Shown here: one piece after another, positions 13,660-60,099 of the stretch
Layout: each line of letters opens with the position of its first letter
Numbering within the stretch: the stretch's first letter is position 1
IMG/VR virus record: IMGVR_UViG_3300042314_001189
Location: 64,001 to 128,000 of that record
DNA from: a virus
Length of the DNA stretch: 64,000 bases
Reading direction: 5' to 3' (one strand)
Program-made: the position numbers and the translations under genes
Notes under the pieces: generated by a model
What the model was told of the DNA's origin: nothing
What the model saw: only the letters and a program-made list of their open reading frames with translations
Databases searched by the model: none

Positions 13660-16386
13660 ATGAAAAAAATTAAGATAACAAAAGAACAGTATAACAGAAT
13701 CGCTGGGTTGTTAACCGAGGGTGATGATGGCTACGCAAAAGGTGGTTTAGCAAGAGTTGATAAACAATTCAAAAAAGCTTTTGCTGGTAAAGACGTTTTA
13801 AACGTTAAGGTCTCTGAAGACATGAAAACAACTAGCTTTGACATTAAAAAACCTAACACTAGTGTACCTAGAAAAGGTCAAGCTAAATTTGGTAAAACCT
13901 TGAGTGAAGGTACTGAAACTTTAAAAAATGAAACCTTAGAATTGATAAAATATCTTTACAGAAAAAGTGAAGAATTTTCTCCGTTTTGGGCTGAACATGA
14001 TTTAACGTATGATGATATTTGTGATTCATTGTTGGATAAAGGTGTTATTGTTAAAAAAGACGGTAAGTTTGAGTTATCAAAATCTTTAGGTACAGCGGAC
14101 GAAGCTAAACAAGCAGTTGAAGATGCGCTAAGCGAAATGGTTGGTGTTGAATTGACAGAATATGACAATTACAATTATCCAATGGGTGCTGACGCTAACC
14201 CTAACGCTCCATGGAATCAAAAAGAACCAAAATACAGTAAAGCTTCTATAAACCCATCAAAATTAACGTTTGAAGGTTTATACTCAAACGGTGAAATTTG
14301 TATCTTAAAAGATAAATCTGGTCAATTATATTCATTCTACTATGATAATGTTTCAGAAGAAGAATTAAATTCACTTGCTTATGATTTAGGTTTTGCCGAA
14401 GAAGAATATATTGGCAAAGATGAAGATGGTATGCCAGAATTTGATTATTATTATAATTGGAAAGGAAACCAAGATGAAGAACCAGAAGTTTTAGCTGCAT
14501 ATGCTTCAGAAAACACATTAGATACTGGTGAAGGTTTAGAAGCTTGGGAAAACGGTGTTGAATTGGTTAAAATAGATGATGCACTTAAAAATGAATTACT
14601 AAGCGTTTACGATAAAGATAGTAAATTAGTAAGTTTATTAGGTGGTGTAAACGAATCTGAAACAGAAGGAGATAGATTAGCTAGATTGAAATCTGTTATT
14701 GCACAAAGAAGAGCTGACTCAGATAAATGGGATGCTGAAAGATTTGCAAGAAGAGACCAACAAAACGCAATAGATAGCGCAAACGCTGAAGAAAAAATGA
14801 GACTTCAGAGCATGCCAAAACCAACACCAGAACCTAAAAAACCAGTTGGACAATACAACATGTTTGGTGGTGTTGATGAAATGGATGCTAGTGCTTCTGG
14901 CGCATTTACACCAGCTTTTGGTGCACAACCAATGAGAAAAGAAATGCCTATTGTCACAAACGTGCCAGTAGTTAAAGAAGGTATGGTCGATTCACCTACT
15001 ACAAATGGTGAATACACAACACCAGCTTTCAAAATGAAAAAAAACCACACAGATTTTGCTGAAACAAAACCTAAAGCATTTAAAAAAACGCAATGGGCTG
15101 GTGGCGGCTTCGTAGAATTTAATGACTGTGTTGATTTGAACAATAAACCAGCTGGTACTGGTTGTAGTACTGGTGCTGTTGATAACGTAGTTAAGGTTAG
15201 AAAAACCAAAGGAAACGTAAACGCACCTTCTTTGAATGAAGGTATGATGCGTGAAGCGTTGAAACTACAACACGATAAAAAAGAAAACAGACTAATTGTA
15301 ATTTCTGATTTAGAAGGTAGAGCTGGTAGTCAAGAAACATTTACTAACAAAGCTGTACTTAAACAAAATGGTTTTGTTTGGACTGGAACCAACTGGGCTA
15401 TACCAGTAGACAAATTAGATGTTGCTAAACAAACTTTAACCCTAATAAATAAAGCTGAGTACTTGATTGATAAATTAGAAGATTTGGAAAGTGCTGTTGA
15501 AGAATCTGGTGCTGATAATAAAAGTTTATTAAAAGCTAGACTTGAACAATATATTTCTGATTTAGCAAACGCAACTGATGAAGCTGCTTTATCTGCTGAG
15601 ATTAGAAGATACTTAACGTTCTTCTCTAAATTCCATAGTTATAGTTTCTACAATAGAATGCTTATCTTTATTCAAAGACCAAATGCGACTAGAGTTGCAT
15701 CATACAAAACATGGCAATCAAAATTCAGACAAGTAAACAAAGGCGCAAAAGCAATAACTGTTTTGGCACCAATCATAAGCAAATCTAACAAACCAGAAGA
15801 TGAAGACGACAATTTCTCATCAAACTCAGACGTTAGAGGGTTTAGAGCTGTAAACGTATTTGATATTTCAGACACAACACCAATTGATGAAAGAGGTGAA
15901 GTTCCAGAACAACCACAATGGTGGGGTGATAACACACCTTCAGAAACTGCTGATGTGTTATTCGAAGCTGTTGTTGAGGTAGCTAAAGATATGGGTATAA
16001 ATGTAACACAAAGCGATGCAAAAGGTGGTGAAAAAGGATATAGTGCTGGTGACCACATTAATATTTCTTCAGATGTAACTGGTGCTGGTAGATTATCTAC
16101 AATGATTCACGAAATTGCTCACGAATTAATGCACTGGAAAAAGTCATCAATCTATTTTATTGACAACGGTGAAGGAAGACAAAAATCAGAATTACAAGAA
16201 TTACAAGCCGAAAGCGTGTCTTATGTTGTATTGAAACATTATGGAATACCAGTTTCACATCATGCAACATACTTAGCATTGTGGAAAGCGAATAAAGATA
16301 GAATTCAAAATAACTTAGAAATTATCTCAAAAGTATCTCAATTTATTATAACTAAAATTGATGCACAAGTAGCTGAAGGTAAATAA
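13660..16386 (+). CDS. Large virion-type protein with C-terminal ArdC-like ssDNA-binding + HExxH metallopeptidase domains
   Basis: FHSYSFYNRMLI...ASYKTW...VNKGAKAI..VFDISDT, HEIAH, ELQAESVSY; many LxE/VNE motifs in the N-terminal part. Confidence 0.75.
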   Translation: MKKIKITKEQYNRIAGLLTEGDDGYAKGGLARVDKQFKKAFAGKDVLNVKVSEDMKTTSFDIKKPNTSVPRKGQAKFGKTLSEGTETLKNETLELIKYLYRKSEEFSPFWAEHDLTYDDICDSLLDKGVIVKKDGKFELSKSLGTADEAKQAVEDALSEMVGVELTEYDNYNYPMGADANPNAPWNQKEPKYSKASINPSKLTFEGLYSNGEICILKDKSGQLYSFYYDNVSEEELNSLAYDLGFAEEEYIGKDEDGMPEFDYYYNWKGNQDEEPEVLAAYASENTLDTGEGLEAWENGVELVKIDDALKNELLSVYDKDSKLVSLLGGVNESETEGDRLARLKSVIAQRRADSDKWDAERFARRDQQNAIDSANAEEKMRLQSMPKPTPEPKKPVGQYNMFGGVDEMDASASGAFTPAFGAQPMRKEMPIVTNVPVVKEGMVDSPTTNGEYTTPAFKMKKNHTDFAETKPKAFKKTQWAGGGFVEFNDCVDLNNKPAGTGCSTGAVDNVVKVRKTKGNVNAPSLNEGMMREALKLQHDKKENRLIVISDLEGRAGSQETFTNKAVLKQNGFVWTGTNWAIPVDKLDVAKQTLTLINKAEYLIDKLEDLESAVEESGADNKSLLKARLEQYISDLANATDEAALSAEIRRYLTFFSKFHSYSFYNRMLIFIQRPNATRVASYKTWQSKFRQVNKGAKAITVLAPIISKSNKPEDEDDNFSSNSDVRGFRAVNVFDISDTTPIDERGEVPEQPQWWGDNTPSETADVLFEAVVEVAKDMGINVTQSDAKGGEKGYSAGDHINISSDVTGAGRLSTMIHEIAHELMHWKKSSIYFIDNGEGRQKSELQELQAESVSYVVLKHYGIPVSHHATYLALWKANKDRIQNNLEIISKVSQFIITKIDAQVAEGK

Positions 16387-32077: not shown

Positions 32078-32193
32078 TTACAAAAAAACTTGCATTTTAT
32101 AAAAAATGTTAGTACCTTTGTAATAAGAAAATAAATAAGTGGGTTTTTTAACCGAAACCCACATATTTATAACTTACAAGTTCTTTAATTTAT

Positions 32194-32544
32194 GGGGATA
32201 CCACGGTATTGACTGGATATAGTCGTAGGTAGTAAGCATGTAGTGCTAAATTGGAAGCACTTTAATCTGTCTATTAAAACAAGAATTGACAACGATTTCA
32301 TCGTATCAGAAAATTTCCTTGACGAAGCTGTAATGGTTTCTAACGGAGAGGTAGCATTAGCCTAATTATTGCAAATGGTGGTAAACCACCGATGATAGTA
32401 ACCTATCAATGGTAGTAATCTACTAGTGGGGCCAAAACCACTATAAAAGTAAGGAAGATTTCGGATAGTTAGAAAACTATGTCCTAAACATGTAGAAAGC
32501 ATTGAAGAATATTCAACACAGGGGTTCGATTCCCCTTATCTCCA
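32194..32544 (+). ncRNA. ssrA: tmRNA (tag ORF 32288-32365, DNDFIVSENFLDEAVMVSNGEVALA)
   Basis: GGGGATA/TATCTCC-A acceptor with G3:U wobble, GGTATTGAC 5' motif, GGGG-TTCGATT-CCCC T arm, tag ending in ALA; terminator at 32592-32625. Confidence 0.9.
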
Positions 32545-32719
32545 CTCGTTTTTAGATTCTACTCAATAATCACCTATGAGATAGAAATTATAACCCTTAG
32601 TAAGTCGCTTTACTAAGGGTTTTTTGTTTTGTATGATATTTATAGTAATTCTTAAAAACAAACTATAAAAAAAAAAGGACTCACACTGAATCCTTTTTAA
32701 TTTTTAATCGCCACACACA

Positions 32720-33761: not shown

Positions 33762-33833
33762 TGCGGGGTAGAGCAGAGGTAGCTCGCAAGGCTCATAACC
33801 TTGAGGTCGTCAGTTCGAGTCTGGCTCCCGCTA
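33762..33833 (+). tRNA. tRNA-Met(CAT), initiator-like
   Basis: Cloverleaf, 1:72 mismatch, CAAGG-CTCATAA-CCTTG. Confidence 0.85.
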
Positions 33834-33892
33834 CAAATGGCCCAGTAAAGCCTCTTACCTTAGTGGTAACGTAACTGGTGCCGAAGATATAT

Positions 33893-33963
33893 TGCGTTAT
33901 GGTGTAAGTGGTTGCACATGAGGCTCATAACCTTGAAGGGTGGTTCAACTCCACGCTACGCTA
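33893..33963 (+). tRNA. Atypical/degenerate tRNA (CAT)
   Basis: D arm, GAGG-CTCATAA-CCTT, GTGG-TTCAACT-CCAC; imperfect acceptor stem. Confidence 0.55.
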
Positions 33964-34045
33964 CTATTGACTTTTACAAGCAAACCCCCGAATATGGCGG
34001 TTTTAATACCCATGAAATGGCATGGTGCTAATAAAAGTTAAAAAA

Positions 34046-35961: not shown

Positions 35962-36008
35962 ATAAATTTGCATTATTGAAAAATGTTTAGTACATTTGCA
36001 ATGCAAAC

Positions 36009-36079
36009 GGCTCTATGATGTAACGGCAGCGTAACGGTCTCTAAAACCGATAGAGTGGGTTCGATTCCCACTAGAGTCA
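36009..36079 (+). tRNA. Amber suppressor tRNA (anticodon CTA)
   Basis: GGCTCTA/TAGAGTC acceptor, CGGT-CTCTAAA-ACCG anticodon arm, GTGGG-TTCGATT-CCCAC T arm; own TACATTTG promoter at 35991. Confidence 0.85.
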
Positions 36080-36080
36080 C

Positions 36081-40618: not shown

Positions 40619-41054
40619 ACAAGGAATACCCGAAGAAAGAAGATTAGAATCTATTAAGTGGGCTTTTGAAAGTTTCAAACATGTTACAGATAAAGATTAT
40701 TTTTTTGCCATAATCGCTCATTTAACTATTTGGGATATATCTGCAATGTTGGTAGATGAAGAAGAGAATATAATGGGACTTTATCTATTAGGTGACAAAC
40801 AACTAGACTCTTTGGTTCGAGATGAAAAATATTTAGACTTGAAAGGTCTTGAAGGTGTTTTGTTAGCTGTTGATAAATCAATTAGAGGAATGGGCTGGGG
40901 AAACAAACTAAAAGACTATCCAAAAACATTAGGGATTGATTATATTTGGGGTCAACAGTTAAAAACCTTGAACAATCTAAACGATTGGTTAAAACGTAGA
41001 GAATTAGTTGGTGAAACCAATAGTGTTTATATAACAGCTGAAATTTTTAAATAA
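40608..41054 (+). CDS. GNAT acetyltransferase
   Basis: LAVDKSIRGMGWGNKL acetyl-CoA binding motif. Confidence 0.7.
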   Translation: MKIKQGIPEERRLESIKWAFESFKHVTDKDYFFAIIAHLTIWDISAMLVDEEENIMGLYLLGDKQLDSLVRDEKYLDLKGLEGVLLAVDKSIRGMGWGNKLKDYPKTLGIDYIWGQQLKTLNNLNDWLKRRELVGETNSVYITAEIFK

Positions 41055-41086
41055 TTCGATATATTTATAATAAAATAAATCGAATT

Positions 41087-42175
41087 ATGAATAAGAAAAA
41101 ATTTTTAACAGAATCAGATAGAAAAAAAATTGTATCTGACAAAGAAAAAGCGATACTAGAAAGTTTTGCAAAAACTTTTAACAAAATCAAACGTATTGAC
41201 GAAAATGAAGTTGCTGGTATCGAAACCAAACAGTTAGAGAAAAAAGCTTTTGATTTTGCTAATTCACCAGAAATGGGTCAATTGGTTGATAAAATTTTAG
41301 CTAATGCTAAACCAGAAGACTTACAACAAATCAAAAATGCTGTTGGTTCAGTATCTGAAGGTATGATGTGTGAAAATGATTTTTCTTCATTTTTAAACAT
41401 TGCACATAAAGCACAATCAGCGTTAAGTGAAGATAACAGCGTTGGTAGTTTACAAAATAGTGTTGGTAAAGCTCTTTCAACTTTTGGTGTGGTTAATATC
41501 ATGTCAATGGGTATGTTACCATCATTAGTTGGTATGGCTGTTGACCATTTTGGTGGAACAAATTTCTTACAATCATTTAGCGATGCTATTGGTTCTGGTG
41601 GTGCAGCTGCTGGTTTATCAGTTATTGGTAGTTTAATTGGTGGTGGTTTATTATGGAGATTAGGTAAAGCTATTTCTGGTGAAAAAGTAACTGGTGATAC
41701 GCCATTATTTGAAACGGATATGAACGATGGTAAAACTATTTTAAAATCAACAGACAAAGATGATTTAAAAGCAGATATTGCTAAAGAAAAAAAAAAACAC
41801 CCAAATGCAAAAGTTGGGCTCATAACTAAAAATGGTAAAATTTTTAGTGTTGAAATAACCCACAATAATGTTAATGAGGGTGAAGATTATGAAAAAATAG
41901 GTAGAGAAGTTGAATACGGAATTAACCCATATGAAGAAGAATCTAATGTTAGTTTTGAACCTATGAATAATGATGAAAAAAAAATGTTATCATATGTTTC
42001 TAAATATGTTGGTAGTGAATTAGAGCTTAGTGATGAAATGGATAATTATAGAAACTTAGGTTATCAAGGTTTTTCTGATAATGTTAAAAACGCATTAAGA
42101 AACGATATGGATTATCAAACATGGGTTCAAATGTCACATGATGAAGATACTTTTAGACGTGAAAGAGGTTTTTAA
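41087..42175 (+). CDS. Putative internal virion protein with Gly-rich hydrophobic segments
   Basis: TATTTATA upstream; LTE, ILE, IDE, VSE, LSE, LFE and VNE motifs. Confidence 0.5.
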   Translation: MNKKKFLTESDRKKIVSDKEKAILESFAKTFNKIKRIDENEVAGIETKQLEKKAFDFANSPEMGQLVDKILANAKPEDLQQIKNAVGSVSEGMMCENDFSSFLNIAHKAQSALSEDNSVGSLQNSVGKALSTFGVVNIMSMGMLPSLVGMAVDHFGGTNFLQSFSDAIGSGGAAAGLSVIGSLIGGGLLWRLGKAISGEKVTGDTPLFETDMNDGKTILKSTDKDDLKADIAKEKKKHPNAKVGLITKNGKIFSVEITHNNVNEGEDYEKIGREVEYGINPYEEESNVSFEPMNNDEKKMLSYVSKYVGSELELSDEMDNYRNLGYQGFSDNVKNALRNDMDYQTWVQMSHDEDTFRRERGF

Positions 42176-42203
42176 TAAAAAAAATAAAAAAAACACAAAA
42201 AAA

Positions 42204-42235
42204 CTTGACAAAACAAAAAAAAGTTAGTACCTTTG
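42204..42235 (+). promoter_or_regulatory. Bacteroidota-type promoter of the tRNA operon
   Basis: CTTGACA ... TACCTTTG. Confidence 0.75.
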
Positions 42236-42279
42236 TATAACTTTTAAATAAGAGAGTATATTTAATAAAAGAAACAAAA

Positions 42280-42378
42280 ATGAGAACAATAAACATACAT
42301 ATGATTTCGATTAGTAATTGGAGACGCAATAGTCACCATACTGGTCAAGGTATGTTTAATGACATCATAGAATGGTAA
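42280..42378 (+). CDS. Leader peptide MRTINIHMISISNWRRNSHHTGQGMFNDIIEW
   Basis: A-rich initiation region; ORF overlaps the antiterminator arm GGTCAAGG (42343-50). Confidence 0.75.
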   Translation: MRTINIHMISISNWRRNSHHTGQGMFNDIIEW

Positions 42379-42403
42379 AACATTTTAGATAATATTAACA
42401 AAG

Positions 42404-42433
42404 AAGCCTTGACCTAAAATCAAGGCTTTTTTT
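42404..42433 (+). terminator. Attenuator terminator
   Basis: AAGCCTTGA-CCTAAAA-TCAAGGCTT-TTTTT; the 5' arm CCTTGACC can alternatively pair with 42343-50. Confidence 0.8.
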
Positions 42434-42613
42434 ATGCTTATAACTATGGGAGAATTAGTAAGACCACTCGGAAAAGTAAAAGTAAAAAAGTTTAACGAAA
42501 ACTTTGATGAAATAGTTGACGAGTATAAAAATAAAGCAAAAGAAATGGGTTACAACGGTGACCTAAGATTTAAAAAAGAAAAAGGTAACATAGTAATTTT
42601 TGTTACAATAGAT

Positions 42614-42690
42614 GGTGGCGTTAGCTCAGTTGGTTAGAGTGCTAGATTGTGATTCTAGAGGTCATGGGTTCGACCCCCATACGTCACCCA
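42614..42690 (+). tRNA. tRNA-His(GTG)
   Basis: Cloverleaf, G-1, CTAGA-TTGTGAT-TCTAG. Confidence 0.95.
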
Positions 42691-42722
42691 AATAGGTCTT
42701 TGATATGTTGGTAAATTAATAC

Positions 42723-42795
42723 ACGGGATTAGCTCAATTGGTAGAGTAGCGGTCTCCAAAACCGAAGGTTGCAAGTTCGATTCTTGCATCCCGTG
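42723..42795 (+). tRNA. tRNA-Trp(CCA)
   Basis: CGGT-CTCCAAA-ACCG. Confidence 0.95.
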
Positions 42796-42806
42796 CTAAA
42801 ATATAT

Positions 42807-42889
42807 GGAAGGAGCCCGAATGGACGAGGACACCGCCTTGAAAGCGGCTGGGTGTAAAAGCTTTGGGGGTTCGATTCCCTCTTCTTCCG
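42807..42889 (+). tRNA. tRNA-Ser(TGA)
   Basis: CCGC-CTTGAAA-GCGG, long variable arm, G73. Confidence 0.9.
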
Positions 42890-42960
42890 CTAAAATTAAA
42901 TTATATGAAAAAAAAATTTGACATGCTTTAAGTTCTGCTAAACAACAGACGATAAAGCAA

Positions 42961-43143
42961 ATGAAAAAAGAAACATTAAAAACAACAACAAACCGTAAAG
43001 TTTATAAAATGCTTCACCGCAAAGAACTTTATGATGAACAAGGATTATGTCACTATTGTGGACCACATTCTGGTTGTAATTCTAATTTTAGACCAAGTTC
43101 AAATAGAAATTGGAAAATGTATCGTAAAACACAGTGGAAGTAA
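42961..43143 (+). CDS. Small basic Cys/His protein within the tRNA cluster
   Basis: CHYCGPHSGCN; RNWKMYRKTQWK. Confidence 0.5.
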   Translation: MKKETLKTTTNRKVYKMLHRKELYDEQGLCHYCGPHSGCNSNFRPSSNRNWKMYRKTQWK

Positions 43144-43154
43144 TTCCACAATCT

Positions 43155-43228
43155 TGGTACCTAGCTCAACTGGTTAGAGCACTTCGCTGATACCGAAGAG
43201 GTTATGGGTTCGAGTCCCGTGGTACCAA
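43155..43228 (+). tRNA. tRNA-Ile(GAT)
   Basis: CTTCG-CTGATAC-CGAAG. Confidence 0.9.
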
Positions 43229-43235
43229 CAAAAAT

Positions 43236-43354
43236 TGTAGGGTGGTGAAATTGGCAGACACGCCATCTGGTCTCGATGGTGTCGATTATTATCAACAGAA
43301 TTATACTTTTTGTTGATAATAATCAACATGTGGGTTCAAATCCTACCCCTACAG
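43236..43354 (+). tRNA. tRNA-like RNA with non-canonical anticodon loop and about 50-nt variable arm
   Basis: TGTAGGG/CCCTACA acceptor, Leu-type D arm, CCATC-TGGTCTC-GATGG, GATTATTATCAACA/TGTTGATAATAATC helix, T arm. Confidence 0.65.
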
Positions 43355-43357
43355 CAA

Positions 43358-43431
43358 GGTCCTTTAGCTCAGTTGGTTAGAGCAGCTCGCTCATAACGAG
43401 AAGGTCGTAGGTTCGAGTCCTACATGGACCA
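43358..43431 (+). tRNA. tRNA(CAT), Ile2 (lysidine) or elongator Met
   Basis: CTCG-CTCATAA-CGAG; GGTCC acceptor resembles Ile-type tRNAs. Confidence 0.85.
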
Positions 43432-43437
43432 CAATAT

Positions 43438-43509
43438 TCTTCGGTAGCTCAGAGGCAGAGCACTCCGCTGTTAACGGATAGGTCGGGATTTCGAAATTCC
43501 CCCGAAGAG
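43438..43509 (+). tRNA. tRNA-Asn(GTT)
   Basis: TCCG-CTGTTAA-CGGA. Confidence 0.9.
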
Positions 43510-43519
43510 CAACATATAT

Positions 43520-43591
43520 TCTCCTTTAGCTCAGCGGTAGAGCAATCGGCTGTTAACCGATAGGTCCTAGGTTCGAATCCTAGAGGGAGAG
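43520..43591 (+). tRNA. tRNA-Asn(GTT)
   Basis: ATCGG-CTGTTAA-CCGAT. Confidence 0.95.
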
Positions 43592-43597
43592 CAACAT

Positions 43598-43669
43598 GGC
43601 GATATAGTATAATGGTTATTACACTTGGCTCATATCCTTGAGAAGTAGGTTCAATTCCTTCTATCGCTA
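43598..43669 (+). tRNA. tRNA-Met(CAT)
   Basis: GGCGATA/TATCGCT acceptor, CTCATAT loop, weak anticodon stem. Confidence 0.75.
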
Positions 43670-43765
43670 CACAATATCTTTGCTCGCCAAATTGGCGAGC
43701 AAATGGCGAGATAAGACAAAAAAGATGAAATTAGGGAGCTTATCTCGCCAAAATTATGATATTAT

Positions 43766-43840
43766 GCATCCATAGCTCAATTGGATTAGAGCACTCGCCT
43801 ACGAAGCGAGAGGTTGAAAGTTCGAATCTTTCTGGATGTA
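43766..43840 (+). tRNA. tRNA-Arg(ACG)
   Basis: CTCGC-CTACGAA-GCGAG. Confidence 0.9.
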
Positions 43841-43845
43841 CATAT

Positions 43846-43918
43846 GCCCCTATCGTTCAACTGTATAGGACCAGCCCCTTCTAAGGGCTTAATGGGAGTT
43901 AGAGTCTCTCTGGGGGTA
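43846..43918 (+). tRNA. tRNA-Arg(TCT)
   Basis: AGCCC-CTTCTAA-GGGCT. Confidence 0.85.
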
Positions 43919-43923
43919 CAAAT

Positions 43924-44007
43924 GGAGAGTAATGCGGTATGGTTGCCGTCCTTGTTTGCTAAACAAAGGGTACCTTCGGGTATGGGATTCGATTTCTCTG
44001 CTCTCCG
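43924..44007 (+). tRNA. tRNA-Ser(GCT)
   Basis: TTGT-TTGCTAA-ACAA, long variable arm, GGAGAG/CTCTCC acceptor. Confidence 0.85.
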
Positions 44008-44079
44008 CTTTTTGTTTATATTGTATATATATAATAATTTTTTAGTATATTTGATAAGTATTTATAATAAAAAAAACAC

Positions 44080-45270
44080 ATGAAAACAAAATTGATATTA
44101 GCCTTTGTAATTGCCCTAATAAGTTCCGTTAGAGCGCAAGTTTCAACAGATTACACATTTTCAGAAACAATTGGAACCTATGCTGCCATAACTAGTGGAA
44201 CACAACTAGTAACAACAACCGCTGGTGCGACAGCATATGACACCGATGGTAGTACTATTTCACTACCAACTGCATCATATTTTACTTTTAATAACGTAAC
44301 AATAACAACTGTCTATATGATGGCAGATGGTTTTTTATGGTTAAATCCTGGGGTTACAATGGCCAACGTTAGTGGTACGAATGCTGTTACGGGGCCGATT
44401 CCATCTACAAGAGTTGCTGACGGTGTAATATCAGCCATGGGAATGGATTTGAGAAGCACATCGTTAGCTGGTCAAGTATATGAAAGAAGATGGTATGACG
44501 ATGGAATAGAAGTCATTTTTCAATGGCAAAACGCTGCAAGATATGTACAAAGTAGTTCTGAAAGATTTTCATTTCAAATAAGAATAAATAAAACAACTGA
44601 TGTTGTGCGTGTTGTATATGGAAATATGACAACGATTACAACGAGCACAACTTATCAACCAATGGTTGGTTTAAGAGGTTCAACAAATACAGATTATAAT
44701 AATAGAAGATTAACAAATTCTATACCCGATTCAACTCCAAACTGGGGTCAACCAAATGGTACAACTGCTGGTACTTCAAATGCACACACTGTTAGATTTA
44801 GAAATAATTGCTTACCAACATCTGGGCTTACATTTGTTTGGACACCACCAGTACCGTTGCCGATAGAATTAATATCATTTGAAGGTATAACAAAAAATGG
44901 TTATAATCATTTGTTTTGGAAAACAGCTAGTGAATCTAACAATGATTATTTCACGATAGAAAAAACGCAAGATGGTATAAACTATAATACTGTTATAAAC
45001 ATAAACGGTGCTGGTAATTCAAACACTACATTAAGTTATGATTATATCGATTATAACGTTGACAATACAATAAACTATTATAGGTTAAAACAAACCGACT
45101 ATGACGGTAAGTATGCGTATTCACATATTATAACTTTAGACAACACTAGGAAAATACTTTTGGTTGTTAGAGTGGTTAATTTATTAGGTCATGATGTTGA
45201 TATAAACTCAAAAGGTATTGTGATATTGATATATGACGATGGTTCGGTCAAGAAAATATTTAATGAATAA
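44080..45270 (+). CDS. Secreted protein resembling a Bacteroidota T9SS substrate
   Basis: Signal peptide, PLPIELISFEG...W.TASE.NNDYF...YYRLKQTDYDG domain, CTD-like NLLG...IYDDGSVKK. Confidence 0.65.
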   Translation: MKTKLILAFVIALISSVRAQVSTDYTFSETIGTYAAITSGTQLVTTTAGATAYDTDGSTISLPTASYFTFNNVTITTVYMMADGFLWLNPGVTMANVSGTNAVTGPIPSTRVADGVISAMGMDLRSTSLAGQVYERRWYDDGIEVIFQWQNAARYVQSSSERFSFQIRINKTTDVVRVVYGNMTTITTSTTYQPMVGLRGSTNTDYNNRRLTNSIPDSTPNWGQPNGTTAGTSNAHTVRFRNNCLPTSGLTFVWTPPVPLPIELISFEGITKNGYNHLFWKTASESNNDYFTIEKTQDGINYNTVININGAGNSNTTLSYDYIDYNVDNTINYYRLKQTDYDGKYAYSHIITLDNTRKILLVVRVVNLLGHDVDINSKGIVILIYDDGSVKKIFNE

Positions 45271-45293
45271 ACAGATATTTATACTAAAAAGAA

Positions 45294-45965
45294 ATGATGA
45301 AAGATTTTATAAAAAAACATGTAAGTGAAGCTATGACGTATAACTTGATAGAAGTACTTATGGGTGAAGATTATCCATCAACATTTGATATGGAACATTT
45401 TAAAAATCTTAGAAAATACGCTGAAAGGGTTAGATATTGTAATGAACATTTGAAAAAGATTTCTTCTGGTTCTTCTAGAATAGTTTATATGGTTGATGAC
45501 ACAAAAGTATTAAAATTAGCTAAGAATGAAAAAGGTGTTGCTCAATGTGCAACAGAAATACAATGGGGTAATGATAGTTACTATGGTGACGTTTTAGCTA
45601 GCACAATCGAATATCACCCAGATGATTTATGGGTTGAAATGGAGTTGGCTAGAAAAGTTAAAAAATCTGATTTCAAAAGACTTGAGGGTATTAATTTTGA
45701 TGCGTTTGGTTATTATTTGAAAAACTTTGAGTTTCAAAATAAAGGAAGAAGAGGTGTGTTTAGTATAGACCCTAAAGAAGAAGAAATTTTAGATGAAAAC
45801 CAATTTACACAAACTATTTGTAGTTTTATGTCAGATTCTGATTCACCAGCTGGTGATTTTATGCGTTTAAACTCATACGGTGTTGTCAACAGAAATGGTG
45901 AAGATATTATCGTAATCATAGATTTCGGATTGACACAAAGTGTGTATGATGAATATTACAGATAA
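45294..45965 (+). CDS. Protein kinase-like fold protein
   Basis: SGSSRIVY, VLKLA, conserved Glu, GDFMRLNSYG, IIDFG. Confidence 0.55.
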   Translation: MMKDFIKKHVSEAMTYNLIEVLMGEDYPSTFDMEHFKNLRKYAERVRYCNEHLKKISSGSSRIVYMVDDTKVLKLAKNEKGVAQCATEIQWGNDSYYGDVLASTIEYHPDDLWVEMELARKVKKSDFKRLEGINFDAFGYYLKNFEFQNKGRRGVFSIDPKEEEILDENQFTQTICSFMSDSDSPAGDFMRLNSYGVVNRNGEDIIVIIDFGLTQSVYDEYYR

Positions 45966-55304: not shown

Positions 55305-56612
55305 ATGATAGTAAAAGAAAACGGTTTAAGATATGCTAAGTTAATCCATGTATCAGTAGATAACGGAATGACTAGCAACAGTAATAAGGTGTATATAATG
55401 GAAGAGTTGCCAGATGGTCGTATCAAATGTGAATATGGTCGTGTTGGTAAATCTTTGGTCACTGAATATAAACCTAGCTCTAAATGGGATAGTGTGTTGA
55501 AGCAAAAACTATCTAAAACAAAAGGTTACACTGATGTAACTGATTTGTTGGCAGAACCAGTTGTCGATGAAACAAAACCAACCAATAACAAAGTAGAAAA
55601 CATCAAAAATGAGATTGTTAGAAAGCTGGTTGATGAGTTGATGTCGTTTGCCAACAAGTCAATCCAAAAGAACTATAAGGTAACGCAAGAAGCCGTATCG
55701 GAACAACAAGTCAATGCTGCTCAAGAAATCATCAGCAACATTAGTGGTTTAATTAAAATTGGGGTTGATATTAAACATGTTAATGACATGTTATTGAAAC
55801 TTTATACCATTATCCCTAGAAGAATGGATAATGTTAAGAACCATTTATTTGATGATATTACGGATGATAATAGATTATCAATAGCTCAAAGGTTAATCGA
55901 TAATGAGCAATCAGCACTAGACACTATGGCTGGTCAAGTTGAGTTATTGAAACAGCAAAGAGAAGCTGCCAAAAAAGCTGCTGAAGCGGAAGCTGAGGGT
56001 AAAAAAGAAGAAGTTAGTGAAATCACAATATTAGACCAAATGGGTTTAACCATTGAGGTTGAAAACGATACGGAAACGCTTGAACTAATCAAAAAATTGA
56101 TGGGTCCAAACGTAAATCAAATGAAACGTGTTTTTAAAGTTGTTAACAAAAAGACACAACTTAGGTTTGATAAACACATGGACAAAGTTGAAGTTAAAAA
56201 GAAAAGATTTTACTGGCATGGGTCTAGAAATGAAAACTGGTTTAACATTTTGCAAACTGGTTTGTTAATCAGACCATCTGGTGCTGTACATACTGGGTCT
56301 ATGTTTGGTGATGGTATCTATTTTGCTGACAAAGCACAGAAATCAATTGGTTACACATCTTTAAGAGGCTCATATTGGGCACATGGTGGTGATAACAAAG
56401 CATTTTTAGCGTTGTTTGACGTACATTTAGGTAAACAAAAAGAAATCCTACATCACAACTCTAGTTGTTACTCTTTGTCTAAAAAAGTTTTGGATAAAGA
56501 AGGGTTTGATAGTGTCTTTGCAAAAGGTGGTGCTGACCTAAGAAATAACGAATATATAGTATATGACTCAGCGCAATGTACTGTATCACATTTAATTGAA
56601 ATATCAAATTAA
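55305..56612 (+). CDS. PARP-like ADP-ribosyltransferase (WGR + regulatory + catalytic domains)
   Basis: NSNKVY...YGRVG (WGR), YTIIP, WHGS, MFGDGIYFAD, KSIGY, NEYIVYD (H-Y-E triad). Confidence 0.85.
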   Translation: MIVKENGLRYAKLIHVSVDNGMTSNSNKVYIMEELPDGRIKCEYGRVGKSLVTEYKPSSKWDSVLKQKLSKTKGYTDVTDLLAEPVVDETKPTNNKVENIKNEIVRKLVDELMSFANKSIQKNYKVTQEAVSEQQVNAAQEIISNISGLIKIGVDIKHVNDMLLKLYTIIPRRMDNVKNHLFDDITDDNRLSIAQRLIDNEQSALDTMAGQVELLKQQREAAKKAAEAEAEGKKEEVSEITILDQMGLTIEVENDTETLELIKKLMGPNVNQMKRVFKVVNKKTQLRFDKHMDKVEVKKKRFYWHGSRNENWFNILQTGLLIRPSGAVHTGSMFGDGIYFADKAQKSIGYTSLRGSYWAHGGDNKAFLALFDVHLGKQKEILHHNSSCYSLSKKVLDKEGFDSVFAKGGADLRNNEYIVYDSAQCTVSHLIEISN

Positions 56613-58494: not shown

Positions 58495-60099
58495 ATGTTG
58501 TTAAAAAGTAAAATCTCGTTAGTGCTTTCATTATTGATAATGATATTGTATTTCACTGTTCAATCCTTATTGGTTTTTGATATTATTCAATATTCAAAAA
58601 ATTTAGGGTATTTTGGTTATGGTTGTTTCATAGCATTTTTATTCCCTTTTTATATTTTTGCCAAAGGGTTTATTAAAAATGCGAATCAAATCAAAAGTAA
58701 TTTCAACCAAACTCAAAAATTTATAGACGAAGCGTCTATTATTTCAAAAGCTGATGCTAATGGTAAAATAACGTATGTAAATAAAAAATTTACAGACGTT
58801 TCTGGTTGGTCCTTAGAAGAAGTCGTGGGTAAAGACCATAATATTGTTAATTCTAATACACACCCAAAAGAGTTTTGGTCTAATATGTATAAAACAGTCG
58901 TTAAAGACAAAAAAATATGGAACGAGATTGTAACCAACAAGGGTAAAAACGGTGATTTTTATTATGTTGATACCTATATAAAAGCTGAGTTTGATAGTGA
59001 AACAAATAAATTGTTAGGTTTCACGTCAATAAGACAAGATGTTACAGAATTGAAAAGAAAAGAGGGTGAAATTTCTAATAGAATGAACGCTATTAATAAA
59101 TCTAATGCTGTTATTGAGTTTGATTTAGATGGTAATATAAAGTTTGCAAATGATTTATTTTTAAACACACTAGGTTATGAACACCAAGATGAAATCGTAG
59201 GAAAACATCATAGTATATTTATTGAAGATGAATATAAAAATAGTGATGAATATAAAGATTTTTGGAAAACATTAAGACAAGGCGTTTTCTTTAGCGGTGA
59301 AATTACCAGAAAGAAAAAAAATGGTAATTTAATTTATCTTCAAGCAACGTATAACCCTATTATAGGAACCGATGGAAATGTTTATAGCGTAATGAAAATT
59401 GCTACTGATATTACCGAAAGCTACAATCAACAGCTGGAGATTGATAAGAAAAACACATATCTAGAACATGCTGCTAAGATACTTAGACATGACATGCATT
59501 CTGGTATAAATACTTATATGCCAAGAGGGGTATCATCTTTGGAAAGAAGATTAACACCAGAAATTGTAGATTCTATAAAATTAGAGGCACCTTTAAAAAT
59601 GATAAAAGAAGGTTTGAAACACACTCAAAAAGTATATAAAGGTGTATATGAATTTACAAATTTAGTAAAAACTGATGTAGTTTTAACAAAAACTGAATGT
59701 AGTATTCAGAAAATAATGGATGATTATTTAACTTCTACTGCTTACAAATCACAAGTTCATTTAGATGATAACTTACCTACATTAGAGGTTAATGAATCTT
59801 TGATGTGTACGTCAATTGATAATTTAATTAGGAATGGTTTAAAATATAATGATAGTAAAAGTAAAGTGGTTAAAATTTACAGCGAAGGTGACTATATTTG
59901 TATTGAAGATAACGGTAGGGGTATTACCCAAAAAGAATTTGAAGAACTTTCAAAACCTTACGTTAGAAAAGAAGGGCAAAAAGAAACGGGTAGCGGTTTA
60001 GGGCTTAACATATGTAAAGCTATTTTAAAAGAACATGGTTTTGATATCACAGCTGAAAAGTTAGAACAAGGTACAAAATTAAGAATAAAAATAAAATAA
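58495..60099 (+). CDS. PAS-PAS sensor histidine kinase
   Basis: Two TM helices, two PAS/PAC domains, LRHDMH, NLIRNGLKY, EDNGRG, GSGLGL. Confidence 0.9.
   Translation: MLLKSKISLVLSLLIMILYFTVQSLLVFDIIQYSKNLGYFGYGCFIAFLFPFYIFAKGFIKNANQIKSNFNQTQKFIDEASIISKADANGKITYVNKKFTDVSGWSLEEVVGKDHNIVNSNTHPKEFWSNMYKTVVKDKKIWNEIVTNKGKNGDFYYVDTYIKAEFDSETNKLLGFTSIRQDVTELKRKEGEISNRMNAINKSNAVIEFDLDGNIKFANDLFLNTLGYEHQDEIVGKHHSIFIEDEYKNSDEYKDFWKTLRQGVFFSGEITRKKKNGNLIYLQATYNPIIGTDGNVYSVMKIATDITESYNQQLEIDKKNTYLEHAAKILRHDMHSGINTYMPRGVSSLERRLTPEIVDSIKLEAPLKMIKEGLKHTQKVYKGVYEFTNLVKTDVVLTKTECSIQKIMDDYLTSTAYKSQVHLDDNLPTLEVNESLMCTSIDNLIRNGLKYNDSKSKVVKIYSEGDYICIEDNGRGITQKEFEELSKPYVRKEGQKETGSGLGLNICKAILKEHGFDITAEKLEQGTKLRIKIK

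Follow-up and report, generated by a model that had tools for sequence, protein, structure and literature searches.

In the stretch of viral DNA studied here (the window: 64,000 nucleotides (nt), bases 64001-128000 of a 137,444-bp viral contig, IMG/VR record IMGVR_UViG_3300042314_001189, with a CheckV completeness of 39%), a cluster of 12 tRNA genes is preceded by a promoter, a short leader open reading frame (ORF) spelled almost entirely in codons that those tRNAs read, and an intrinsic terminator. Judging from this sequence and those of its relatives, we consider it likely that the unit is a ribosome-mediated leader-peptide transcription attenuator, which would sense the supply of the aminoacyl-tRNAs cognate to the leader codons and control a phage tRNA operon. 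The observations behind this proposal are the anatomy of the unit, the codon match, the covariation of leaders with tRNA sets across related units and the covariation of two alternative RNA pairings. Promoter, leader ORF, terminator and tRNA cluster lie where a first-pass annotation, made from the letters alone, had placed them, as located by sequence, minimum free energy (MFE) folding and ARAGORN. The elements ahead of the cluster are:

42205-42235, + strand: Bacteroidota-type promoter, with the -33 element TTGAC (42205-42209), 18 nt and the -7 element TACCTTTG (42228-42235)
42236-42279, + strand: 5' untranslated region (UTR) of 44 nt, with the blocks GTATAACTTTTA and TATATTTAATA and then an A-rich stretch ahead of the ATG
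42280-42378, + strand: leader ORF of 32 codons, from the ATG at 42280 to the TAA at 42376-42378 (MRTINIHMISISNWRRNSHHTGQGMFNDIIEW)
42290-42316, + strand: region 1, the partner of region 2 (42339-42358) in the MFE fold of the free leader
42295-42339, + strand: regulatory codons 6-20 (IHMISISNWRRNSHH), 15 of 15 read by tRNAs of the cluster
42343-42350, + strand: antiterminator core GGTCAAGG (region 2), facing CCTTGACC at 42407-42414 (RNAduplex energy -9.4 kcal/mol)
42405-42433, + strand: intrinsic terminator, an 8-bp stem of AGCCTTGA (42405-42412) and TCAAGGCT (42420-42427) with the 7-nt loop CCTAAAA, followed by 7 T

The terminator hairpin begins 26 nt past the leader stop codon and forms in the MFE fold, where its stem is longer (42400-42432). 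The pattern TTG-N-TAnnTTTG occurs 24 times on the contig's + strand, including the leader promoter, and its TAnnTTTG part is absent from that strand between 42236 and 43674. In an Rfam scan of 41800-44300 only tRNAs reached their gathering scores, with matches to Thr_leader and sRNAs falling far below, and a blastn search of 41000-45300 against cultured phages returned tRNA matches only. ARAGORN called 10 tRNAs within 42615-44008, to which relaxed settings added a Ser(TGA) tRNA and an odd tRNA-like element, giving the following cluster:

42615-42689, + strand: tRNA-His(GTG) (ARAGORN, Rfam scan)
42723-42796, + strand: tRNA-Trp(CCA) (ARAGORN, Rfam scan)
42807-42890, + strand: tRNA-Ser(TGA) (relaxed ARAGORN only; 32.8 bits against the Rfam tRNA-Sec model)
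43155-43229, + strand: tRNA-Ile(GAT) (ARAGORN, Rfam scan)
43236-43355, + strand: tRNA-like element (relaxed ARAGORN as Ser(GGA) with a 26-nt insert; no canonical anticodon call)
43358-43432, + strand: tRNA(CAT) (ARAGORN, Rfam scan)
43438-43510 and 43520-43592, + strand: two copies of tRNA-Asn(GTT) (ARAGORN, Rfam scan)
43598-43670, + strand: second tRNA(CAT) (ARAGORN, Rfam scan)
43766-43841, + strand: tRNA-Arg(ACG) (ARAGORN, Rfam scan)
43846-43919, + strand: tRNA-Arg(TCT) (ARAGORN, Rfam scan)
43924-44008, + strand: tRNA-Ser(GCT) (ARAGORN, Rfam scan)

When ATA is counted as read by tRNA(CAT), on the assumption that the latter is lysidine-modified, 19 of the first 20 leader codons, all but ACA, are read by tRNAs of this cluster, while the tail of the leader scores 5 of 12. 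This match had been noticed in the first pass, and its probability, left there to be calculated, comes to 4e-10 (binomial) for a background of 0.278, the share of cluster-readable codons in 93 long contig ORFs. The runner-up among the 669 contig ORFs of at least 25 codons reaches 14 of 20, and across all frames and both strands of the 137-kb contig the leader holds the only run of at least 12 cluster-readable codons. The attendant claim that every anticodon of the cluster is represented is likewise correct: nine distinct anticodons (GTG, CCA, TGA, GAT, CAT, GTT, ACG, TCT and GCT) each find a cognate codon within the first 20, and all seven amino acids (Ile, His, Met, Ser, Asn, Trp and Arg) have one within positions 6-16. 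Rare codons are included, namely CGC (1% of Arg codons) and TCG (5% of Ser codons). The sole exception, the Thr codon ACA, falls in an M(R/K)TIN start common to leaders of different types; hence, it stems from this conserved start and is not a sensor miss.

The window unit is not alone. Searching the contig with 42200-42640, we found that the promoter, UTR and leader start recur twice, just outside the window:

Contig 131128: type B paralogue, leader MKTINTVLTLLLCLLVADWVGYAC (begins MKTINTVLTLLLCLLV) and terminator, then tRNAs Cys(GCA), Val(GAC), Val(TAC), Leu(TAA) and Leu(TAG)
Contig 134438: type C paralogue, leader MRTINNIFEFDFFAAEADFSLGRSTHVKS (begins MRTINNIFEFDFFAAEADF) and terminator, then tRNAs Phe, Glu, Asp, Ala, Ala and Glu

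The 5' UTR blocks are kept in every unit of the clade and were used as the search pattern for further relatives. An IMG/VR scan with this pattern yielded 43 stretches, from which 31 further distinct units were kept after dropping duplicates, contig-end fragments and nine unrelated matches, making 34 units with the three of the contig. L016, L017, L019, L022, L026 and L029 proved to be one unrelated sequence devoid of leader or tRNA, and L031, L040 and L046 chance matches to the UTR pattern; a looser pattern run on viral contigs gave 114 stretches, mostly chance. A scan of bacterial genome contigs returned 73 stretches, none with a same-strand tRNA within 500 nt and the 12 inspected ones lacking both leader and tRNA; thus, no bacterial copy or host was found in it. 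The 34 units fall into four leader types, listed here with their amino-acid sets:

Type A, 10 units: His, Trp, Ser, Ile, Met, Asn, Arg
Type B, 8 units: Cys, Val, Leu
Type C, 7 units: Phe, Glu, Asp, Ala
Type D, 9 units: Pro, Gln, Tyr, Thr, Gly, Lys

Taken together, the four sets sum to all 20 amino acids, and two contigs hold all four types. No type D unit was found in the contig of the window; from the gene order in relatives, one may lie just beyond the contig end. The leaders track these sets closely, a covariation that the first-pass annotation had proposed to look for in related phages. The fraction of leader residues 6-17 falling inside the unit's own set is 1.00, 0.80, 0.82 and 0.99 for types A, B, C and D, over backgrounds of 0.28, 0.15, 0.23 and 0.33 respectively, and 214 of the 221 downstream tRNA genes match the type of their leader. 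Counted by codon in the 22 units that have five or more tRNAs, the unit's own downstream tRNAs read 228 of the 264 codons at positions 6-17 as against 62 of 232 in the leader tails. Further, residue changes respect the set: every one of the 12 columns varies in type D, with 107 of 108 residues remaining within PQYTGK, and in type A 120 of 120 stay within theirs. The type A leaders compared at codon level pair AGA with CGY for Arg and sample Ser by TCG plus AGY. Homologous leader ORFs are present in nine related type A units, where alignment gaps come in multiples of three. All 34 units keep a distance of 23-33 nt from stop codon to hairpin; the first tRNA of type B begins 8-16 nt past the hairpin (8 of 8 units). 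As a separate observation, the motif TTGACAT(A/G/C)(T/G)TGG(T/A)T, not followed by a -7 box, occurs after the terminator and shortly, in several cases directly, before the first tRNA in the type A and D units L010, L020, L025, L027, L028, L034, L035, L041, L044 and L045.

A comparable arrangement is present in a cultured phage. By DNA ligase, the closest cultured relatives are Cellulophaga phages phi4:1 and phi17:2 (52% identity to the ligase of the window), and phi4:1 (NC_021788.1; Lightbulbvirus) carries two units built like that of the window, each with a promoter, a leader of cognate codons, an antiterminator right after those codons, a terminator and tRNAs:

phi4:1 leader 1 (unannotated): MKIQRLHLQELEQPIISGGTGV (begins MKIQRLHLQELEQP), preceding Pro, Glu, Gln, His, Leu(TAG), Leu(TAA) and Arg(ACG)
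phi4:1 leader 2 (inside gp075, probably with a GTG start): (M)QLTKTGITVIDKTKGARAYLGDTVIG (begins (M)QLTKTGITVIDKTKGARAY), preceding Ala, Lys, Ile, Gly, Met, Asp, Thr, Val, Arg(TCT), Met and Tyr

These differ from the window in their promoter, UTR and leader sequences, and their two operons group the amino acids differently from types A-D; both leaders nevertheless track their own grouping. The stop codon lies 27 nt ahead of the hairpin in both. The Arg codon is CGT in leader 1, which precedes Arg(ACG), and AGA in leader 2, which precedes Arg(TCT); this match at the isoacceptor level points to the sensing of tRNAs rather than of amino acids. With the three units of the contig and the 31 of related contigs, phi4:1 thus bears out the covariation of leader content with tRNA set. 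On the annotation of this phage, gp075 (L164, NC_021788.1, 3990-4109; labelled 'hypothetical protein') has its annotated start within the promoter and holds the second leader peptide, and gp076 (NC_021788.1, 6118-6219) coincides in part with a tRNA-Ser(TGA)-like sequence and is probably no real gene. A scan with the phi4:1 promoter pattern gave 30 stretches, in which tRNA-linked units occurred only in phi4:1's own record, the rest being ordinary promoters; in a generic leader scan of Vibrio phage V09, a KVP40 relative, the best candidate had 11 of 12 residues in a 10-amino-acid set, which is not significant.

The second line of evidence concerns the RNA switch. The first-pass annotation had proposed that GGTCAAGG forms an antiterminator mutually exclusive with the terminator, and it is indeed exactly complementary to CCTTGACC in the terminator 5' arm. 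The segment at codons ~19-25 pairs with this arm in the window, and in the relatives the homologous position pairs with their own, different arm. For types A, B and D, the 5' arm finds its strongest partner within the leader at ORF nt ~49-74, right after the regulatory codons, with duplex energies (-6 to -16 kcal/mol) close to that of the terminator. Mean duplex energy is -11.2 kcal/mol with a unit's own arm as against -7.7 kcal/mol with the arms of other units. In the type A alignment, 78.6% of the antiterminator cells are paired, compared with 13-54% when the partner is slid, a conservative estimate since the window row is shifted by one alignment column and counts mostly as unpaired; terminator cells are paired in 91.3%. 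Three antiterminator pairs (5 cells) change on both sides, a cell count reached by none of 500 shuffles. For example, L025 and L034 show a matching G-to-A in the antiterminator, C-to-T in the 5' arm and G-to-A in the 3' arm. The covariation of the two pairings is therefore seen both in the type A alignment and in the contrast between own-arm and other-arm duplexes. The 1:2 pairing comprises two helices in the MFE fold (42290-42298 with 42350-42358, and 42309-42316 with 42339-42346), and both of its sides stay almost unchanged across the type A alignment, so that no covariation is visible for it. Directly 3' of the antiterminator, GG(C/G)TATG (42349-42355 in the window) is kept in types A, B and D and read in different frames (GCT ATG in type A; GGC/GGG TAT G in types B and D), pointing to a constraint at the RNA level; it may be part of the 1:2 pairing or a pause signal.

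Folding was constrained by a 30-nt ribosome footprint. For the window unit at full-length equilibrium, the probability of the terminator drops from 0.96 in the free RNA to 0.0-0.4 when codons 6-13 occupy the A site. Full-length equilibrium folding, which flips the window unit and not most of the relatives, was rejected as a general test, and a truncated-transcript model was used instead. In transcripts cut before the 3' arm, the 5' arm is sequestered (probability ~0.5-0.9) with the A site at codons 1-~16 and freed (~0-0.5) with the A site at codons ~17-29, and this holds for all 34 units. In such transcripts without a ribosome, the antiterminating 2:3 pairing beats the 1:2 pairing, which is present in the MFE fold of the window.

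Briefly, we advance the following mechanism, which we infer to involve translation of the leader, coupling of transcription to translation and read-through upon stalling. Host RNA polymerase would initiate at the promoter, with a ribosome following closely and translating the 32-codon leader. Fast decoding of codons 6-~16 would bring this ribosome onto codons ~17-29, where it would cover GGTCAAGG while the terminator is being made; with the antiterminator covered, the hairpin would form and transcription would end ahead of the tRNA genes. Conversely, if any one of the cognate aminoacyl-tRNAs were scarce, the ribosome would stall upstream and the antiterminator would pair with the terminator 5' arm, allowing read-through into a small ORF and the 12 tRNA genes. 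The net effect would be negative feedback, each tRNA operon being made on demand. The first-pass annotation had this as an attenuator of the trp/his type acting by stalling on any of 20 codons. The comparisons strongly support the attenuator with its cognate codons; the number of effective codons, on the other hand, has to be reduced. Stalling at codons 17-20 is ineffective in the folding model because an A site there puts the normal footprint over the antiterminator, and these window codons are thus probably too near it to act.

Several points weigh against this proposal. The related units share kinship, and the counts drawn from them are not independent events. Seven of the 221 tRNA genes sit in a cluster of another type, five units have a tRNA whose amino acid is lacking from the leader, and for the type D leader L045 no tRNA was called within 6 kb. 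The type C antiterminator is weak (-3.8 to -9.0 kcal/mol), and 4 of the 7 units of this type have a consensus promoter (TTG-N-TACCTTTG) between the terminator and tRNA-Phe, which means that the operon may have a constitutive input besides the attenuated one. These internal promoters are in:

L002 (contig 134600-134730, outside the window), L018, L042 and L051: type C internal promoters

The window cluster itself contains a -7-like motif at 43675, which lacks a -33 TTG. On the folding side, full-length equilibrium keeps the terminator favoured in most relatives despite a stalled ribosome, and the switch must consequently be kinetic, as in trp. Once a ribosome waits at the stop codon in types A and D, the antiterminator is uncovered, and basal termination would then depend on 1:2 pairing, on a trailing ribosome or on suitable timing. 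Finally, the sole signal from RNA libraries is one low-depth contig (depth 2.2) spanning 42282-42529, which could be DNA; these RNA runs were available as contigs only, with a word share of 0.04-0.12, and most matches were conserved tRNA parts of other organisms.

Alternative explanations bear either on the purpose of such a device or on its existence. Its purpose could be counter-defence, in which case it would sense the depletion of host tRNAs by anticodon nucleases such as PrrC and PARIS and induce replacement tRNAs. A stall would follow the loss of any cognate tRNA, a transfer-messenger RNA (tmRNA) and a suppressor tRNA show how much the phage puts into translation, and phage tRNAs are reported, in the consulted portions of PMC10264068 and PMC11464382, to escape or neutralise tRNA-targeting defences. 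Yet the sensors span all 20 amino acids and nearly every isoacceptor, a breadth that fits supply control or host-pool replacement at least equally, and we regard counter-defence as rather unlikely to be the purpose. Known anticodon nucleases cut only a few tRNAs. We identified no nuclease or defence context here, none having been put to the test. A related idea, which we entertain tentatively, is that the attenuators are damage sensors within a translation supply system run by the phage: a host cutting or withholding tRNAs, for example through nucleases or host shut-off, would stall ribosomes on the matching codons and so induce exactly the replacement block that is needed.

It is quite improbable, by our reckoning, that the leader senses amino-acid starvation, i.e., uncharged tRNA generally, with the tRNA operon as one output. 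Starvation would trigger the switch too, given that stalling depends on aminoacyl-tRNA, and all leader-peptide attenuators known to us respond to charging; but extra tRNA gives no relief from a shortage of amino acids, and the isoacceptor-level matches (CGT/AGA in phi4:1; AGA plus CGY and TCG plus AGY in type A) are what sensing at the level of tRNA predicts. Phage tRNA regions often contain small ORFs and terminators, and one could suppose an ordinary small gene, or an untranslated spacer, with a constitutive leaky terminator and a codon match of no regulatory meaning. We give this hardly any credence, as it leaves unexplained why four leader types and the two phi4:1 leaders each track their own tRNA set, as well as the within-set change of residues, the fixed stop-to-hairpin spacing and the covarying antiterminator. 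Among these accounts, we favor the ribosome-mediated attenuator of a phage tRNA operon.

The read-through product would include one more gene of type A:

42446-42637, + strand: small ORF (MGELVRPLGK...), 56 amino acids (aa), between the terminator and the first tRNA and overlapping tRNA-His

It is kept behind 8 of the 10 type A terminators (window, L008, L010, L034, L038, L041, L048 and L050; 55-60 aa), and its position between terminator and first tRNA places it under the same attenuator. The product belongs to no Pfam or PHROG family and had no usable Atlas match; an AF2 model (pLDDT 83) has a strand-helix-helix-strand-strand order, for which no fold match at E <= 0.001 was found in the PDB. 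Within the cluster, the tRNA-like element at 43236-43355 carries an extended hairpin insert (~48 nt) and lacks a canonical anticodon loop. In RNA run X2, a near-identical contig joins 43229 directly to 43357, lacking 43230-43356, and the element is thus an insertion/deletion difference among close relatives.

Elsewhere, the window encodes a phage tmRNA at 32194-32547 on the + strand (Rfam RF00023, 66.7 bits against a gathering score of 47), with a consensus promoter just upstream (32090-32120). A tRNA with the anticodon CTA (an amber suppressor; 'Pyl' in ARAGORN) at 36009-36080 (+ strand) has its own consensus promoter (35968-35998) and, unlike the sense-codon tRNA operons, neither leader ORF nor terminator. 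Two further tRNA(CAT) genes lie outside the leader-gated clusters, at 33762-33834 and 33893-33964 (+ strand); on sequence inspection both have an initiator-like mismatch at acceptor positions 1:72. An initiator tRNA would escape sensing, as A-site stalling cannot report it. Among the protein-coding genes, all on the + strand, are those for a PARP catalytic-domain protein (55305-56612; E = 7e-27), a PAS-domain histidine-kinase-like protein (58495-60099) and an ArdC-like protein (13660-16386), in the last of which the anti-restriction domain sits in a protein of 908 aa.

The presence of tRNA genes in phages has long been a puzzle, and to our knowledge the regulation of those genes is almost unknown. 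If the proposed attenuator is real, these phages would meter their tRNA output via a ribosome that tests the very codons read by those tRNAs, and leader-peptide attenuation would extend from amino-acid metabolism to the tRNA pool, up to seven amino acids and nine anticodons being sampled by a single sensor within 15 codons. The alternatives of codon supply, replacement of the host pool and counter-defence become testable, each predicting different inducing conditions; bench work is feasible because the cultured phi4:1 has the same device. The leaders could also be used as compact natural reporters of decoding speed at chosen codons. If they were damage sensors, they would amount to an inducible counter-defence monitoring the whole genetic code through a few multiplexed leaders. 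In the portions consulted, PMC10264068 and PMC11464382 view phage tRNA genes as a response to host tRNA loss and concern the sequence and function of the tRNAs. Our search of the full-text literature, taken without supplements and including the accessible parts of PMC2965389, PMC5335546, PMC10264068 and PMC11464382, came upon no description of leader-peptide control of tRNA genes.

Against the backdrop of known systems, the window unit has the ORF, terminator and antiterminator of a leader-peptide attenuator. Multivalent attenuators are familiar from enterobacteria, where the thr leader has Thr and Ile codons and the ilvGMEDA leader Ile, Leu and Val codons, alongside hisL, trpL, leuL and pheL. 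The window unit shares with them a short leader ORF, a terminator, an antiterminator using the terminator 5' arm and several amino acids per leader, and with leuL the use of rare sensor codons. Unlike them, it controls tRNA genes and belongs to a phage of Bacteroidota-type hosts; its leaders cover up to seven amino acids and nine anticodons each, with several leaders splitting the whole code between them. There is no family-level match to the leaders of biosynthesis operons (the best Rfam score is Thr_leader, 21.3 bits against a gathering score of 55), and the downstream genes are neither biosynthetic nor synthetase genes. A further related system is the pheM attenuator of E. coli pheST, in which a leader peptide governs a part of the translation machinery and exerts feedback on the supply of aminoacyl-tRNA for the same amino acid; however, pheM controls a synthetase, for one amino acid and in a cellular genome, whereas the product in the window is the tRNA itself. 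T-boxes, for which an Rfam scan of 41800-44300 gave no match at E <= 1, also use transcription attenuation to report the state of specific tRNAs to translation-related genes. The difference lies in the sensor: the T-box RNA binds uncharged tRNA directly without a ribosome, whereas in the window the proposed sensor is a translated ORF.

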